Positions 2,281 through 12,665 of a DNA stretch of 12,665 nt are shown one piece after another. This DNA is from Nitrospirota bacterium (GTDB lineage Bacteria; Nitrospirota; UBA9217), in NCBI GenBank assembly GCA_029858565.1, contig JAOUEV010000079.1, positions 1 to 12,665 of the forward strand. Direction: 5' to 3'. Within the stretch, counting starts at the first letter, position 1, and each line of letters begins with the position of its first letter. A model generated the notes under the pieces. The model searched no databases, was not told where the DNA came from, and worked only from the letters and a program-made list of their open reading frames with translations. Made by a program: the position numbers and the translations under genes.

Positions 2281-5200
2281 ATGAACGAAGAACGAAGGAT
2301 CAACGAGGAATTGAAAGCGGAGCTGGAGCAGCTCCGCAAACGCGCCCGGTACCTGGAACAGGAGCGCGGGAAGATGCAGGAAACGCTCACGGATGCCGAA
2401 GAGCGGTGCCAGCTGATCTGCGAGAATTCGCCGATCGGCATGGGATTCATCAACCTCGACGGCGTGCTCGTTGACTGCAATGACGCGCTCTCGTCGATCA
2501 TCGGCACCCCCCGGGACCGTTTGATCGGATTCCCGATGAAGACGGGTCTCACCAACGAGGCGGTTGCCGTTGCCCTGGCGCGGGCATTTGCGGGGCGCAC
2601 CGGCGCGTTCGAGGGCGAGTACGCGGGGGTAACGAGCGGCAAGACGACGTCCCTTCGGGCGATCTTTTCCCCGCTGTTCAGCAGGGACGGGATGCTCAGG
2701 GGAGTATTGTTCCTTGCAGAGGACATCAGCGAGCGCAAACAGATGGAAGAATCGCTCCGGCAGAGCGAGGAGCGGTATCGCCAGCTGTTCGAAGCGGAAT
2801 CGGACGCTCTGTTCCTGATCGACAACGAAACAGGCCGCATCCTCATGGCGAATGCCGCAGCCGCGGCCATGTATGGATTCAGCGAGGCGGAACTCCGGGA
2901 AAAGAAGAACACCGACCTGTCCGCGGAGCCGTCGGAGACCCGGCGGGTGACCGAGGAAACGCCGGTGCTGAAGGATGCCGCGGTGACCATTCCTCTCCGG
3001 TATCACCGCAAAAGAGACGGCGCGGTCTTTCCGGTGGAGATCACGGGCAGGTTCTTTGACTACAAGGGCCGGCCGGTCCACATCGCCGCCATCCGGGATA
3101 TCTCCGAACGCAAAAGGGCCGAGGAACAGCTTAAGGAAAGCGAGGAAAAGTACAAGTTCCTTATCGAGGCGACCAGGACCGGCTTTGTGATCATCAATGG
3201 TGAGGGACGCGTTCTTGATGCAAATGACGAGTATGTGCGCCTGAGCGGTCATGCCAAGCAGGAGGATATCCTCGGCAGGGGCGTGGTGGAGTGGACCGCC
3301 GCGCATGACCGGGAGCGCAATGCAGAGGAAGTGAAAAAGTGCGTGGAAACAGGATTCGTCCAAAACCTGGAGGTCGACTATGTGCACGAAAACGGCCGAA
3401 TTTCTCCGGTCGAGATAAATGCGACGGCCATGCGCACCGGCGGCGCGATACGGATATTCACCATCTGCAGGGACATCACCGAGCGCAAACGGGCGGAGGA
3501 GGCGCTCCGGGACAGCCGGCGGTTCCTGGAGGAGATCATTGAGTCTGCGCCCACCTGAATCAAGGTCATTGCTGCAGACGGGACTCTGCAGAGGATGAAC
3601 ACCGCGGGACTGGCAATGCTCGAAGCGGAATCCCTTGATCAGGTCAAAGGCCTCTGCGTCTATCCGATGGTATCCGGGGAATATCGGAAAGCGTTCGAGG
3701 CCCTGACGCGGGATGTCTTCAAAGGGGAAAGCCGAACACTGGAATTCAAAATGTCCGGTTTGAAAGGGCGGCCGCTCTGGCTCCACACGCATGCTGTCCC
3801 TCTGCGCAACGAACAGGGGGAGATCGTTTCAGTGCTTGCGATCACGACCGACATCACCGAGCGAAAGCTTGCAGAAGATGCGCAGAAAGAGAGCAAGCGA
3901 TCCCTCGGGAGGCTCATGGGCAATCTTCCGGGCATGGCCTACCGCTGCCGGAACGACCGGGACTGGACCATGGAGTACGTGAGCGAGGGCGCGCTCGACC
4001 TGACCGGCTACCAGCCGGCCGACCTCCGGGAGAACGCGAAGGTCGCGTACAACGAGCTGGTCGATCCCGAGGATCGGCAAGCCGTATGGGATGCAGTCCA
4101 GCAGGCGGTCCGGCAGAAACGGAAGTTCACGCTGAACTACCGGATCCGCACGGCCGATGGCAGGGAGAAGCGGGTCTGGGAGCAGGGGCAGGGGGTCTTT
4201 TCCGAGGAGGGAGACCTGCTCGCACTGGAGGGATTCATCACCGATGTTACCGAACGGCAGCTTCTCGAGGAGGAGCGTCTCAAGACCCAGAAGCTCGAGT
4301 CCATCGGCACGCTTGCCGGCGGCATTGCCCACGATTTCAACAATCTGCTGCAGGGCATGTTCGGGTACATTTCCATGGCCAAGGTGTCCCTGGACCAGAA
4401 GGAGAAAGCCGGCGCCATGCTCGAACAGGCGGAGAAGGCGCTGCACCAGTCCGTGAACCTGACGACCCAGCTTTTGACCTTCTCCAAGGGCGGCAGACCG
4501 GTCAGGAAGACGATCCCGCTCCGGCCGGTGATCGAGAACGCCGTGAAGTTCGCCCTGAGCGGATCCCGCCTGAACTACCGGATCGATATGGACGATCGGC
4601 TTCGGCCGGTGGAAATCGACGAAGGCCAGATCGGCCAGGTGATCCAGAACATCGTGCTGAACGCTGACCAGGCCATGCCCCTGGGCGGGAACATCAGGAT
4701 CGAGGCCCGGAACGTCCATACCGGGGACCCGGGGGTGCCGCAGACGCTGGCCCCGGGCGACTATGTCGCCATAGCGATCAGCGATAACGGCATCGGCATT
4801 CCGGAGCAGTTCCTGTCCCGCATCTTCGATCCCTATTTCACCACCAAGGAGAAGGGGAGCGGTCTGGGGCTTGCGACATCCTATTCCATAGTCAAGAACC
4901 ATGAAGGGATCATCGATGTCTCGTCCCAGGCAGGGACGGGCACGCTGTTCACGATCTACCTTCCCGCGCTTCCCGGCAGTGCGGCCGAGGCGGACATCGG
5001 TCCAGCTGCGGCGCCCCCGGCACGGCGGGGCCGCATCCTGGTGATGGATGACGAGGAGATCGTCCGGATGGTCTCGGGAGAGCTCATCCGGTCCCTGGGA
5101 CATGAGGTCGACTTCGCGGAGCACGGCGACGCCGCGGTCGTGAAGTTCCGGGAAGCAAGGACCGCGGGTCATCCTTTCGATGTGGTCATCCTGGACCTGA

Positions 5201-5400
5201 CGATCCGCGGCGGTATGGGCGGACTGGAGACGTTCCAAAAGCTGAAGGAGATCGATCCGGAGGTCAAGGCAGTGGTATCGAGCGGTTACTCCGACGACGC
5301 GATCGTCGCGAACTACCGGAAGCACGGGTTCCGGGCGTTCCTGAAGAAACCCTATGATCTCGCGGAATTGCGGAGCATTCTGGACTCCCGTATGGCATAA
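2281..5400 (+). CDS. Cytoplasmic hybrid sensor histidine kinase (coiled coil, 5 PAS/PAC, HisKA, HATPase_c, REC), 1039 aa with one in-frame TGA at codon 426; candidate selenoprotein, alternatively a nonsense-split pseudogene
   Basis: ORFs 2281-3558 and 3595-5400 share a frame and read continuously IIESAPT-TGA-IKVIAADGTLQRMNTAGLAMLEA. Five PAS domains end in DISER/DITER/DVTER. H-box GGIAHDFNNLL, N-box QVIQNIVLNA, G1 DNGIGI, F/G2 FDPYFTTK..GSGLGL, receiver ILVMDDE...ILDLTI...FLKKPY. SD GGAG at 2270-2273. No transmembrane segment seen. Confidence 0.88.
3566..3598 (+). promoter_or_regulatory. Putative bacterial SECIS hairpin
   Basis: Upper stem CTGCAGA (3572-78)/TCTGCAG (3585-91), a perfect 7 bp. 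Apical loop CGGGAC. Lower stem TCATT (3566-70)/GATGA (3594-98) beyond a 1x2 internal loop. There are 20 nt between the TGA and the loop. Confidence 0.6.
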
Positions 5401-8813: not shown

Positions 8814-10142
8814 ATGGAAAAGTTGCCAGTCAGGATGTTGATCGCCGATGATGAGAAGAACATCCGGGAGTTGCTGCGAAACGAGCTCTCAACGATGGTT
8901 TCGTCGGTCCAGGAGGTGGAGAGCGGTGTACGCGCCCTGGAAGAGCTCGAAAAAAGCGAGTATGATATTCTTCTGCTCGACCTTACCATGCCCGAGATGG
9001 ACGGCATTACGGTCCTCAAGAAACTGAAAGCTCTCGATATTCCCGCCGAGATCATCATTCTCACCGCCAACGCCACCGTGCAGACTGCTGTCGAGGCCAT
9101 GAAGCTCGGCGCCTGCGATTACCTTATGAAGCCCTTCAGGATCGCGGAGTTGCTCCCGGTCGTTGAAAAGGCATACGAGAAAAAGAAGCTCCGCTCCGAG
9201 AACCTTCTGCTCAAGACCCAGGTTAAGAAACAATCGGAGATCCGCAGTCTGATCGCGGAAAGCCCGATGATGCGGGAGGTGATCGGGCGGTCGAAAAAGA
9301 TCGCGCATTCGGATTTTCCCGTGCTGATCACCGGGGAGAGCGGGACGGGCAAGGAACTGATAGCGCGATTCATCCACAACGAATCCCCCCGCGCCGACCG
9401 GTCCTACGTTGTCATCAATTGCGGCGCCCTGCCTGATAATATGATCGAGAGCGAGCTGTTCGGCTATGAAAAGGGCGCGTTCACCGGCGCGCAGGCGAGA
9501 AAGCCGGGTCTGCTCGAGATCGCCAACGAGGGAACGCTCTTCCTTGACGAGATCGGGGACATGCCGCTGCCGCTCCAGGTAAAGCTGCTGCGGGTCATCG
9601 AGACCGGAACATTCTACCGGCTCGGGGGCACCCGGGAGCAGCAGGTCAACGTACGGATCATTTCCGCGACCAATAAGAACCTGAAGGCCGGGATCGAGAA
9701 AGGCGTATTTCGGGAGGACCTCTATTACCGGGTATCCGCCCTTGCCGTTCATGTCCCTCCGCTGCGGGAGCGGAGGGAAGACATTGTCCCTCTTGTCGAA
9801 CACTGCAGGCGCGGCAATCCCGCGTTCAAACAAAAGCAGTTCAGCAGCGATGCGCTGAAAATATTGTCCGACCACGCCTGGCCGGGGAATGTCCGACAGC
9901 TTCAGAACATGGTCCATCACGCCCTTCTGCTGAGTACGAACGATCTGGTAGAGCCTCCGGACCTGTCTTGTGATCTGGAGGGCCGGCCGGCAAGAACCGC
10001 TACCCGGCTCGACGAGCTGGAACGGGAGCACGTCCTGCGGATGCTGAGGCAGGCAGGGGGCGACCGGAACAAGGCGGCCGCGGCGCTGGGGATCCACACG
10101 AGGACCCTGGCCCGGAGGCTCGAGGAGTACGGGGTTGAGTGA
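8814..10142 (+). CDS. Sigma-54-dependent response regulator, NtrC/AtoC family (REC-AAA+-Fis HTH)
   Basis: Receiver LIADDE...LLDLTMP...YLMKPF. Walker A ITGESGTGKE, ESELFGYEKGAFTGA, Walker B LFLDEIGD, FREDLYYR, WPGNVRQL, HTH GGDRNKAAAALGIHTRTLARRL. SD AAGGA. Confidence 0.96.
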   Translation: MEKLPVRMLIADDEKNIRELLRNELSTMVSSVQEVESGVRALEELEKSEYDILLLDLTMPEMDGITVLKKLKALDIPAEIIILTANATVQTAVEAMKLGACDYLMKPFRIAELLPVVEKAYEKKKLRSENLLLKTQVKKQSEIRSLIAESPMMREVIGRSKKIAHSDFPVLITGESGTGKELIARFIHNESPRADRSYVVINCGALPDNMIESELFGYEKGAFTGAQARKPGLLEIANEGTLFLDEIGDMPLPLQVKLLRVIETGTFYRLGGTREQQVNVRIISATNKNLKAGIEKGVFREDLYYRVSALAVHVPPLRERREDIVPLVEHCRRGNPAFKQKQFSSDALKILSDHAWPGNVRQLQNMVHHALLLSTNDLVEPPDLSCDLEGRPARTATRLDELEREHVLRMLRQAGGDRNKAAAALGIHTRTLARRLEEYGVE

Positions 10143-10154
10143 TGACATACTCTC

Positions 10155-12665
10155 ATGCCTGATATGAATATTCAGGGGATCTTTCGAAAGTTCACGCTGA
10201 ACATGGCAGGCGTTCTTAATCGCCGGTCTTTTGCCATTAAGGCACTCTCCGTTATTGTACCGGTCATCGCTCCCCTTGTGTTTTGTTCTCCGGCGTTTTG
10301 TCTTCAAAAAACCGCTAAAATCGGCGTTCTTGCATACCGTGGCGCCGCGGAAGCGCTGCAGATGTGGTCTCCAACCGCTGCGTACCTGAGCGCACACGTC
10401 CCGAATTACCATTTTTCGGTCATTCCCCTGACTTTTCGCGAGATCGGCCCGGCTGTCCGCAACGGCGAAGTCGACTTCGTGGTTGCGAACACCTCCATCT
10501 ATGTGGAGCTTGAAACACAATATGGCATCAGCAGGATCGCAACGATCAAGAACAAGAGCCGGCTCGGCGGTTTCACGGTATTCGGCGGTGTGATATTCTG
10601 CCGGACTGATCGGCGCGATATCCGCGAGATCGGGGACCTGAAGGGCAGGTCGTTCATGGCTGTTGACGAAACCTCTCTGGGGGGGTGGCAGGCCGCATGG
10701 AAAGAACTGAAAGGCCATGGGATAGAACCGCATCGTGATTTCAAGGGTCTGCGGTTCGGAGACACGCATGATGCGGTTGTGCATGCAGTGCTGAACGGCA
10801 AGGTTGACGCGGGAACGGTGCGCACTGATACGCTCGAGCACATGGCGGCGGATGGGAAAATAGATCTTCAGGCCTTCCGCATAATCAATGAGCAGCGCGT
10901 CGAGGGCTTCCCGTACGCGCTCAGCACCCGTCTATATCCTGAATGGCCCTTTGCCAAGCTGCGCCACGCTGATAATGAGCTTGCCCAGAAGGTCGTTATT
11001 GCGCTGCTCCGGCTCGCTCCGGACAGCCGGGCGGCAAAGGCGGCGAAGATCATGGGCTGGACCGTGCCGCTCGATTACGAGCCGGTCCATGAGCTTCTGA
11101 AGGGGCTCCGCATGGGCCCCTACAAAGACTATGGGAAGATCACCTTGTCCGCGGCGATCAGGCATCATTGGCACTGGGCCGCACTCGCTTTGCTGACAGT
11201 GCTGTTGATGGCGGCAGCCACGTCATATGTGTTCGCACTCAACCGAAGATTGGCGCTCTCGCAGGGGCGGCTGGAGGAGGCGAAAAACAGTCTTGAGCGC
11301 GAGGTGCGGGACAGGACGGCAAAACTTTCGGAAAGCGAGGAGCGCTACCGGCTGATCGTGGATACGTCGCTTGAAGGAATTATTACGATCGATCCCAGGG
11401 GAGAAATCGTCCTCTCGAATAATCGGATGGCGGAGATGCTCGGACGGACCCGGGAGGAGCTCCTGGGGGGGTTGCTCGTGTCGTTCGTGCATGAGGACGA
11501 GGCACTGGACCACGAGAAACAGCATAACCTGTGGTTGCAGGGGAAGACCTCGTATTATGAACGCCGGTTCCGCAAGAAAGACGGCACGGTGACCTGGACA
11601 AGCGCCACGGCAACGCCGCTATTCAATCAGGACGGAACTTTGCGCGGCGCGTCCGGCCTGTTCACCGATATCACCGAGCGCAAAAAAGCGGAGAAGGACC
11701 TGCAGCGAGAGCGAGACCGGGCGGAACGGTATCTTGATATTGCGGGGGTAATGTTCGCTACGCTGAACACCGAAGGGGAAATATGCCTGGTCAACAAAAA
11801 AGGATGCAGTATTTTGGGATATGACGATGAGTCTGAACTGCTTGGCCGCGACTGGTTCGAGGTATGCCTGCCCGGCACTGTCAAGGATTCGGTGAAGGGA
11901 GTGTTTGATCAGCTTATGGCAGGCGATGTTGAGCCGGTCGAATATTACGAGAACCCGGTGGTTACGAAAGCGGGCGACGAGCGGATAATCGCATTCCACA
12001 ATACAGTCTTGTATGATCCGTTGTCAAAGCGGCCCTCCGGCATCTTGTTCTCAGGCGAGGACATTACCGACCGCTACAAAATGGACCGGGCGCTTCGTGA
12101 AACGAACGAAATGCTTGAGACTCTGGTGCGGGCATCGCCGCTGGCGATTGTCGTTTTTGACGGGGACGGGAATGTGGCGCTCTGGAATCCGGCTGCAGAG
12201 CGGATTTTCGGCTGGAACGCGCAGGAAGTACTGGGCCGCTTTAATCCGATCGTGGGGGAAGAAAAAAAACAGGAGTTCCTGGCCCTCCTGGACCGGGTGA
12301 TGCACGGCGAATCGCTGTCCAGCGTGAGCCTGCGGCGGAGCAAAAAGGATGGCTCGGTCATAGATGTCAGCGTATCGTCTGCACCCATGCGCAATGCGGC
12401 CCATGAGCCTGTGGGCATTATTTCGGTGATCGCCGACATCACCGCGAGGAAACAGGCTGAAGCGGAGCGGGAAAATCTTATCGCCGATATCCGGAGCGCT
12501 CTCGATGCCGTGAACCGCTCGAAAAAAGAGTGGCAGGAGACCTTCGACAGCATCACGGACATGATATCCATCCACGACAGGGACTATAACGTCATCAAGG
12601 CGAATAAGGCGTTCTCGGCGAACCTGGGGAAAACCCCTCAGGAGGTCATCAACAGGAAATGTTAT
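10155..12665 (+). CDS. Membrane sensor, probably a histidine kinase (3'-truncated): PhnD/phosphonate-binding-type periplasmic domain (TtrS/ThsS-like), TM helix, at least 4 PAS domains
   Basis: Hand-translated open frame from ATG 10155 (alternatives 10164, 10203) to the window end with no stop. Hydrophobic N-terminus, KIGVLAYRG..W.PTAAYLS, VDFVVAN..YVELE, SLGGWQ, VDAGTVRTDTLE, STRLYPEWPFA, GWTVPLDY, TM WAALALLTVLLMAAATSYVFAL (about 11175-11240), then PAS domains ending DITER, DITDR and DITAR and the start of a fourth. The kinase core is not in the window. Confidence 0.9.
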   Translation, partial: MPDMNIQGIFRKFTLNMAGVLNRRSFAIKALSVIVPVIAPLVFCSPAFCLQKTAKIGVLAYRGAAEALQMWSPTAAYLSAHVPNYHFSVIPLTFREIGPAVRNGEVDFVVANTSIYVELETQYGISRIATIKNKSRLGGFTVFGGVIFCRTDRRDIREIGDLKGRSFMAVDETSLGGWQAAWKELKGHGIEPHRDFKGLRFGDTHDAVVHAVLNGKVDAGTVRTDTLEHMAADGKIDLQAFRIINEQRVEGFPYALSTRLYPEWPFAKLRHADNELAQKVVIALLRLAPDSRAAKAAKIMGWTVPLDYEPVHELLKGLRMGPYKDYGKITLSAAIRHHWHWAALALLTVLLMAAATSYVFALNRRLALSQGRLEEAKNSLEREVRDRTAKLSESEERYRLIVDTSLEGIITIDPRGEIVLSNNRMAEMLGRTREELLGGLLVSFVHEDEALDHEKQHNLWLQGKTSYYERRFRKKDGTVTWTSATATPLFNQDGTLRGASGLFTDITERKKAEKDLQRERDRAERYLDIAGVMFATLNTEGEICLVNKKGCSILGYDDESELLGRDWFEVCLPGTVKDSVKGVFDQLMAGDVEPVEYYENPVVTKAGDERIIAFHNTVLYDPLSKRPSGILFSGEDITDRYKMDRALRETNEMLETLVRASPLAIVVFDGDGNVALWNPAAERIFGWNAQEVLGRFNPIVGEEKKQEFLALLDRVMHGESLSSVSLRRSKKDGSVIDVSVSSAPMRNAAHEPVGIISVIADITARKQAEAERENLIADIRSALDAVNRSKKEWQETFDSITDMISIHDRDYNVIKANKAFSANLGKTPQEVINRKCY

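Follow-up and report, generated by a model that had tools for sequence, protein, structure and literature searches.

The selenocysteine insertion sequence (SECIS) of Escherichia coli fdhF is a stem-loop placed a short, constant distance downstream of the UGA, the upper part of which, with its loop G, forms the SelB-binding unit; its spacer measures 11 nucleotides (nt), its upper stem carries a bulged U and its loop is of the GGUC type. Here we describe a hairpin at positions 3566-3598 of a 12,665-nt stretch of DNA from a Nitrospirota bacterium (GenBank assembly GCA_029858565.1, contig JAOUEV010000079.1, the whole of which is hereafter called the window). It follows an in-frame UGA (3556-3558) in the gene of a hybrid sensor histidine kinase. 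On the comparative evidence set out below we consider it very probable that the hairpin is a functional bacterial SECIS serving this UGA, in what is apparently an unreported family of selenoproteins. Judged from sequence, the locus appears best read as a SECIS of ordinary design whose host protein is a PAS-domain sensor kinase of Thermodesulfovibrionia-type Nitrospirota. Relative to fdhF, the spacer is 13 rather than 11 nt long and the upper stem lacks the bulge.

The constraints of the bacterial SECIS model (bSECIS), as given in section 5 and the legend of Fig. 2 of a 2026 review (PMC13188914), are an apical loop of 3-9 nt, an upper stem of 4-16 base pairs (bp), a distance of 16-37 nt from the UGA to the loop and a minimum free energy (MFE) of -7.5 kcal/mol or lower; in addition, at least one of the first two loop nucleotides is a G, and the base after it is usually G or U. 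The kinase hairpin has a loop of 6 nt, an upper stem of 7 bp, a distance of 20 nt and an MFE of -15.0 kcal/mol, and it sits within the coding region directly 3' of the UGA, as a bacterial SECIS should. The second loop position is a G and the next is again a G; the alignment columns concerned (36-38, CGG) are invariant in the 22 distinct TGA-bearing sequences described below. Hence, the fit to the bacterial consensus that a preliminary description of the window, made from its letters alone, had claimed holds for every constraint stated in that section.

The hairpin drawn in the preliminary description was reproduced from the sequence and with RNAfold in each of its elements. On the forward strand, a spacer of 13 nt (3559-3571) separates the UGA from the upper stem, and its last part doubles as the 5' arm of a 5-bp lower stem (UCAUU, 3566-3570), which RNAfold predicts and which is only partly conserved. 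The 3' arm of this lower stem (GAUGA, 3594-3598, RNAfold) holds the AUG that translation table 11 uses as the start of the open reading frame (ORF) 3595-5400. A 1x2 internal loop, with G 3571 opposite AG 3592-3593, leads to the perfect 7-bp upper stem formed by CUGCAGA (3572-3578) and UCUGCAG (3585-3591), both arms of which are supported by RNAfold, the 22-sequence alignment and RNAalifold. The apical loop, CGGGAC (3579-3584, RNAfold and alignment), reads CGGGUC in many relatives, and the 20 nt between UGA and loop are positions 3559-3578. When 3556-3605 is folded, the hairpin is both the MFE and the centroid structure; the 20-nt upper hairpin alone has -9.0 kcal/mol. The structure is retained within the MFE fold of 3526-3660, a 135-nt context that is not unusually stable in itself (z 0.26). 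An E-value scan of 3400-3800 against Rfam yielded no SECIS-like family and just four matches at chance level.

The TGA at 3556-3558 joins two ORFs of the same frame (2281-3558 and 3595-5400) into a single reading of 1039 amino acids (aa) on the forward strand (2281-5400), and beyond it the frame stays open for 613 more codons; table 11 divides the same gene into ORFs of 425 and 601 aa. Translation and Pfam identify the full-length product as a hybrid sensor histidine kinase with a coiled-coil N-terminus, five PAS domains, HisKA, HATPase_c and a receiver, in this order (PAS_4, E 1.9e-58; HATPase_c, E 3e-23; Response_reg, E 5.5e-17). The UGA falls in the fourth PAS domain, for which we used a 134-aa query segment (3496-3897, forward strand; TIGR00229 sensory_box, residues 5-128, E 3.2e-11). 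It is residue 21 of this segment, in the motif APT-U-IKV, at what is predicted to be the start of the first beta-strand region, and a stop at this point would cut the predicted PAS fold just after its N-terminal cap. We propose that a ribosome on the kinase mRNA would reach the UGA while the upper stem-loop 13 nt downstream binds SelB with Sec-tRNA(Sec), so that selenocysteine (Sec) would be inserted as residue 426 (U426, a codon assignment resting on the sequence and on the alignment with cysteine codons). Translation would then run on through the fourth and fifth PAS domains, the kinase core and the receiver to give a 1039-aa selenoprotein, with Sec in place of a Cys that is otherwise invariant in the subfamily.

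To find homologues with the same codon we scanned for a pattern derived from the peptide around the TGA, which fixes part of the 5' arm through its Ala-Asp-Gly codons and leaves the 3' arm free. Among species-representative genomes it returned 21 loci, of which 11 are true homologues, and among metagenomes 29 loci, with 16 true homologues; all of these homologues carry the hairpin. Ten of the 11 genome homologues are from Nitrospirota, Nitrospirae, Nitrospira, Thermodesulfovibrionia or Candidatus Sulfobium. The eleventh, L067, is labelled Candidatus Omnitrophota and is identical in domain sequence, TGA and hairpin to the Nitrospirae sequence L080; the label is probably a binning error or reflects a very recent transfer. 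Searches of genomes with the protein, which ignore RNA structure, gave a match at E 1e-15 or better in 51 of the 64 genomes of the order, three of them with TGA (the window's own, G040 and G042); the class-level search covers the same 64 genomes. In a phylum-wide sample 105 of 401 genomes had a match at E 1e-25 or better, with at least five TGA-bearing matches among those listed, the new ones being two in G233. Every TGA match of these protein-based searches has the TGA at the same codon and the hairpin behind it.

Fourteen TGA homologues were traced along their loci. Counted from the start or the locus edge, 44 to 397 codons precede the TGA, and 13 of the 14 remain open in frame for another 189-1002 codons. 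In four of them no more than 44-57 codons come before the TGA, and a product terminated at it could not be a functional protein. The fourteenth, the metagenome homologue L114, runs for 107 codons past the TGA and carries a frameshift: in L114:1074-1529 the TGA and hairpin are intact, but the translation breaks down late in the domain and after that runs into stops, which indicates a frameshift by assembly error or a decaying copy. Pfam analysis of seven TGA homologues recovered five hybrid kinases with the Sec-PAS module at varying positions, and two small proteins without a kinase, L057 (1195-2130) and L070 (1162-2247). The module is thus a mobile one. In four of the seven the Sec site falls within a PAS_4 match: residues 118-226 in L057 (Sec 123), 40-148 in L070 (Sec 45), 51-160 in L119 (Sec 57) and 309-417 in L102 (Sec 314). 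The two small proteins share a conserved Cys-rich tail, LPIC-x-x-CKKIRDD-x-GYW ... HG-x-CP-x-C, which from its sequence looks like a zinc-ribbon-type output, and L057 has an N-terminal hydrophobic segment.

Removal of duplicates left 22 distinct TGA-bearing segments of 72 nt. In the proposed register 92.8% of the cells of this alignment are paired, a share that falls to 34-54% once the 3' partner is shifted by one to three columns; pairing holds in 151 of the 154 upper-stem cells and in 94 of the 110 lower-stem cells. RNAalifold, given no structure, returned the same 7-bp upper stem, with the lower stem missing from its consensus. All 22 sequences have a spacer free of insertions and deletions and a distance of 20 nt from UGA to loop. 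For comparison, among Cys-codon homologues outside the TGA clade (30 sequences, 29 distinct) 54% of the cells are paired overall and the upper stem in 84 of 203. The folding energy of the 20-nt upper hairpin ranges from -7.5 to -9.0 kcal/mol in the 12 TGA sequences that come from genomes and from -5.5 to +10.4 kcal/mol in those 30. The expectation in the preliminary description that Cys-bearing homologues should have lost the stem is thus borne out for the 30 outside the clade, but not for two others, L027 and L029, in which the hairpin is intact. Metagenome contigs of four DNA runs cover the UGA and hairpin thinly (depth 2-14); among the rows listed, differences within 3559-3598 occur at 3565, 3570, 3571, 3583, 3593 and 3594, and the UGA and both arms of the upper stem are free of them.

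The constraint extends to synonymous sites, which we analysed in 21 of the TGA sequences, L114 being dropped for its frameshift. When windows of seven codons are ranked, each of the top eight of 128 overlaps the hairpin; in these, 0.76-0.94 of synonymous codon pairs are identical as against 0.56 overall, and the median synonymous divergence (dS) is 0.42 for codons +1 to +12 after the TGA, 1.14 upstream and 1.41 downstream. The ratio of nonsynonymous to synonymous divergence (dN/dS) is 0.24 upstream and 0.14 downstream of the TGA; both flanks are under purifying selection. At single codons, T is the third base of codon +5 in all 24 TGA sequences and of codon +9 in 21 of them (2 of 30 in the outside Cys sequences), and the loop Gly is encoded by GGG in 23 of the 24, as against 4 of 27 Gly codons in the outside set. 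The preliminary description had pointed to codons rarely used in this gene; this stands for ACT, GCT and GCA and falls for CTG, a G-ending codon that is used for Leu more often than any other. Of the gene's 56 Thr codons only the one in the hairpin is ACT (7% of Thr codons genome-wide), and GCT and GCA account for 5 and 15 of its 99 Ala codons (GCT, 13% genome-wide).

The UGA aligns with a conserved Cys, and the flanks on both sides are conserved. In the closest paralogue of the same genome (on C144, 56% identical) the aligned codon is TGC, and Cys occupies this column in all 33 distinct homologous sequences that lack the TGA. When 1.84 billion representative proteins were searched with a profile, 5470 were retrieved at E 1e-30 or better, and among the best 150 of these, 110 of the 111 domains scoring at least 120 bits carry Cys at the UGA column, in a motif EPE-C-[VI]K to which the kinase's APT-U-IK corresponds; the generic PAS domains of the same 150 proteins have G, A or P there. 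Hence, Sec would replace the very residue that defines this PAS subfamily. Sequence and profile searches of the PDB gave generic PAS matches only, and no structure with a Cys at the Sec position was found. As for the role of the residue, analogy with other Sec/Cys pairs suggests that it is probably a redox-active or a ligand- or metal-contacting sensing residue. ArcB is a cysteine-based redox-sensing PAS kinase, whose redox Cys residues lie elsewhere in the fold than the Sec site; it resembles the present protein in that a PAS domain of a hybrid histidine kinase holds a Cys critical to function, but it matches the kinase only weakly (NCBIfam, E 7.4e-4). A second Cys 33 residues downstream (G-x-C-V-Y-P) was considered as a selenenylsulfide partner and rejected, being nonspecific, in that the Cys forms L031, L036, L041, L043 and L045 have it, and missing from the Sec forms L057 and L067.

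The machinery for decoding UGA as Sec is encoded by the host. The window is contig C57 of a 3.9-Mb assembly of 144 contigs (G000), which has one tRNA-Sec (64 bits; called SeC by ARAGORN, with anticodon UCA and a discriminator G, G73, followed by CCA), SelA and SelB side by side on C101, and a pair of selD genes that both carry a TGA in frame near the N-terminus (G000:C3:2376-3290 and G000:C14:90529-91446). TGA is also the commonest stop, terminating 697 of the 1449 long ORFs of the genome, which shows that the genetic code is not reassigned.

For a comparison with the host's own elements, proposed in the preliminary description, we scanned the genome for ORFs reading through a TGA followed by a hairpin and used Pfam to check 20 of the 36 candidates left after filtering. 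Ten of these fall into families in which Sec forms are known or redox motifs are plausible: two FdhA, a Pyr_redox_2 protein, a HesB-like protein, a NiFe hydrogenase large subunit, two rhodaneses, a DsbA-like protein, a Trx-Pyr_redox protein and a NifU-like protein. No family was assigned to the other ten, which look like spurious ORFs. Adding the first selD (selD-1) to the ten with families gives 11 host elements with spacers of 9-15 nt, stems of 6-11 bp, UGA-to-loop distances of 17-26 nt and MFEs of -13.1 to -23.3 kcal/mol. The kinase hairpin lies inside each of these ranges (spacer 13 nt, stem 7 bp, distance 20 nt, MFE -15.0 kcal/mol), and this agreement speaks for compatibility only, because a set chosen by a scan that requires such hairpins makes the comparison partly circular; non-conforming elements are absent from the set, the second selD (selD-2, on C14), for example, having failed the scan. 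The loops of the 11 elements measure 3-5 nt with a G at position 1 or 2, and the G-rich loop of the kinase, with its GGAC- or GGUC-like core, has counterparts in the HesB-like (GGAC), SelD (AGGUC) and NifU-like (GGUCG) elements.

Several observations, along with the circularity just mentioned, weigh against a SECIS. The hairpin is only marginally more stable than expected, with a z of -1.94 and 9 of 200 dinucleotide shuffles folding equally well, and a hairpin as good follows 60 of the 8047 Cys codons (0.75%) in the long ORFs of the genome. The hairpin alone is thus weak evidence, and the case for a SECIS is carried by the comparative evidence. The commonest loop sub-pattern of the bSECIS model, N1 G [G/U] N N2 with N1 and N2 paired, is not that of CGGGAC, and at 6 nt this loop is longer than that of any of the 11 host elements. 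The covariation that the preliminary description had hoped for in TGA-bearing homologues did not appear, there being no double-sided change in the upper stem across 22 sequences: one of its pairs varies between A-U and G-U (15 and 6 sequences), and the other six show no variation apart from unpaired cells. In the lower stem U-G, C-G, U-A and one A-U occur, with a single double-sided cell, the only one in the structure. The support is hence from conservation and association rather than from compensatory change, and since the stem bases encode a conserved A-D-G-x-L-Q, part of that conservation is at the protein level. Finally, the preliminary description had held that an equally good hairpin in Cys-codon homologues would count against a SECIS, and taken literally this is what L027 (G001) and L029 (G009) have: a TGT codon with a perfect hairpin, in genomes that both use Sec.

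To place these two sequences we computed trees of the domain with the hairpin-coded columns removed; the second tree left out five metagenome sequences shorter than 402 nt (L118, L121, L122, L125 and L127) and the duplicate L102. A branch with support 100/98 separates all TGA sequences plus the Cys sequences L027, L029 and L056 from the 30 other Cys sequences, and L027 and L029 group with the TGA sequences L103 and L115 (support 99/98). Outside the hairpin, dS is 0.156 for L027-L103 and 0.077 for L029-L103; at most one or two synonymous changes are expected within the hairpin of either, and L029 has one (GGG to GGC). Both are thus recent derivatives, which keep the hairpin because their divergence from the TGA form is too recent for it to have decayed. 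The long-diverged Cys sequence L056 (dS about 2) encodes the same AADGTLQ through GCC and ACG and has five of the seven upper pairs left, with a dS in the hairpin of 0.94-1.8 as against 0.25 for the equally distant Sec-Sec pair L016-L055. All three Cys forms use TGT, one step from TGA, and the starred branches of the tree require two changes or more. If the tree is rooted on the Cys side, the simplest history is one gain of Sec together with the hairpin, followed by two or three reversions; this history is suggestive and not strong, because it rests on a single old reversion. The idea that the Cys forms arose through loss of the Sec machinery was rejected, as G009 has SelA, SelB and a TGA-type selD, and G001 (96% complete) has a tRNA-Sec (61.7 bits) and a TGA-type selD. 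In G001, searches with PF03841 and PF09107 did not find SelA and SelB, but given that selA and selB are adjacent in G000, one missing contig would explain this absence.

Alternatively, the UGA could be an ordinary stop, the locus yielding a 425-aa PAS-only protein and a 601-aa kinase started from AUG 3595, or being a split pseudogene, with the hairpin incidental or acting in mRNA stability or translational coupling. We regard this as most improbable. It agrees with the two ORFs that table 11 yields, with TGA being the genome's commonest stop and with the slight statistical significance of the hairpin taken alone, but it would split the protein inside a PAS fold and leave the downstream piece without its first two strands. 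It also leaves at odds the presence of TGA at the same codon in at least 22 distinct sequences free of other lesions, the purifying selection on both flanks and the four homologues with just 44-57 codons before the TGA. Moreover, codons +1 to +4, between the TGA and the AUG, vary synonymously with the peptide kept, and an AGGA directly abuts AUG 3595, leaving no usable Shine-Dalgarno spacing for an independent start.

The two further explanations accept read-through. If the hairpin were a by-product of the peptide A-D-G-T/S-L-Q and codon preference, or had some other role in the RNA, read-through being independent of a SECIS, then the overlap of the upper stem with conserved codons, the missing compensatory covariation and the hairpins of the two Cys homologues would all be as observed. 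Codon preference, however, would hardly retain codons as rare as ACT and GCT, the third positions of which are fixed in 24 of 24 and 21 of 24 TGA sequences. Moreover, L056, which has the same peptide next to a Cys codon, uses GCC and ACG, loses two pairs and has the raised hairpin dS given above, and the Gln and Arg/Ser residues that make the 3' arm are found only in the TGA clade. This explanation therefore seems to us highly unlikely. About equally unlikely is a working SECIS that delivers cysteine, always or under selenium shortage, through a SelC*-type tRNA(Cys) with anticodon UCA or through Cys mis-made on tRNA(Sec), as has been proposed for some Thermodesulfovibrio and Nitrospirae (PMC5389517). 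SelC*-type tRNA(Cys) genes, with U73, are reported from these groups in the same paper, which places them in the lineage. ARAGORN found no such tRNA in the genome: the single UCA-anticodon tRNA has a discriminator G instead of U73, and the sole tRNA-Cys is an ordinary 76-nt GCA species, though with the assembly in 144 contigs a second gene could be missing.

If the hairpin is indeed a SECIS, the recoding mechanism is the known bacterial one and the protein apparently lies outside the known selenoproteins. Table 1 of the 2026 review, dated May of that year, catalogues 119 families and subfamilies of prokaryotic selenoproteins and has no PAS, kinase, sensor or two-component entry (PMC13188914); in that review the identifiers PF08448, PF13426, PF00989, PF08447 and PF02518 and the terms "histidine", "sensor", "two-component" and "signal transduction" have no occurrence. 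As presented there, the catalogued families share with the kinase a Sec in place of a conserved Cys, an in-frame SECIS and an anaerobic, Sec-rich lineage, but they are almost all oxidoreductases, transporters or metal-binding proteins and the kinase is a signal-transduction sensor. With few exceptions, the selenoproteins known so far are redox enzymes. Among NCBIfam models only generic PAS and kinase ones match it. A search of the full-text literature, to which the supplementary candidate lists of large selenoproteome screens do not belong, found no Sec-containing kinase or PAS protein. The passages checked in PMC2702500, PMC2398784 and PMC1976440 likewise contain none, the search terms standing there in unrelated contexts, and in bioRxiv 10.1101/2022.07.06.499078 these terms do not occur.

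More tentatively, and at odds we would put well short of even, the kinase may be the first selenocysteine-based sensor, with Sec as the sensing residue for a redox, chalcogen, metal or oxidant signal and the gene serving also as a translational switch responding to selenium status. Were this true, sensing would be tuned by the lower pKa and redox potential of the selenol. With the kinase core encoded 3' of the UGA, the full-length kinase would then depend on the selenium supply, and scarce Sec-tRNA would leave the PAS-only fragment of 425 aa. Sec at this place in a histidine kinase's input domain would point to chemical activity of the Cys conserved across a very large PAS subfamily, and the Sec/Cys pair offers a direct handle on the signal that this subfamily, the 5470 representative proteins retrieved above, detects. 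There is a practical consequence too, in that gene callers split or truncate such genes, with loss of the N-terminus in those that have the UGA 44-57 codons into the gene.

The genes around the kinase encode a PD40 repeat protein, an M28 peptidase-PDZ protein, a methyltransferase, a sigma-54 activator and a second PAS kinase, and these neighbours gave no functional clue. The sigma-54-dependent response regulator occupies 8814-10142 and is followed at 10155-12665 by the second sensor kinase, which has a phosphonate-type periplasmic binding domain at its N-terminus and PAS domains, one of them a 30%-identical relative of the Sec-PAS domain with no TGA. At 3468-3509 contigs of the four metagenome runs stack to a summed depth of hundreds to thousands and diverge on both sides; this stack is a generic inter-PAS linker (..DITERKRAEEAL..) common to many unrelated PAS proteins and does not represent the kinase gene.

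Two of the host's other candidates may be described in more detail. The [NiFe] hydrogenase large subunit (L085, G000:C18:47643-49343, minus strand; NiFeSe_Hases, E 3e-215) has an in-frame TGA at codon 64, which corresponds to the second Cys of the N-terminal nickel-binding motif R-x-C-G-x-C, with a 9-bp hairpin bearing the loop GGU 14 nt downstream. The Sec of [NiFeSe] hydrogenases is usually described in the C-terminal motif, unlike that of L085. The pyridine-nucleotide disulfide oxidoreductase (L082, G000:C4:422-1828) has its TGA as the second residue of the redox pair G-G-T-C-L-N-T-G-U, followed 15 nt downstream by an 11-bp hairpin with the loop GGC.

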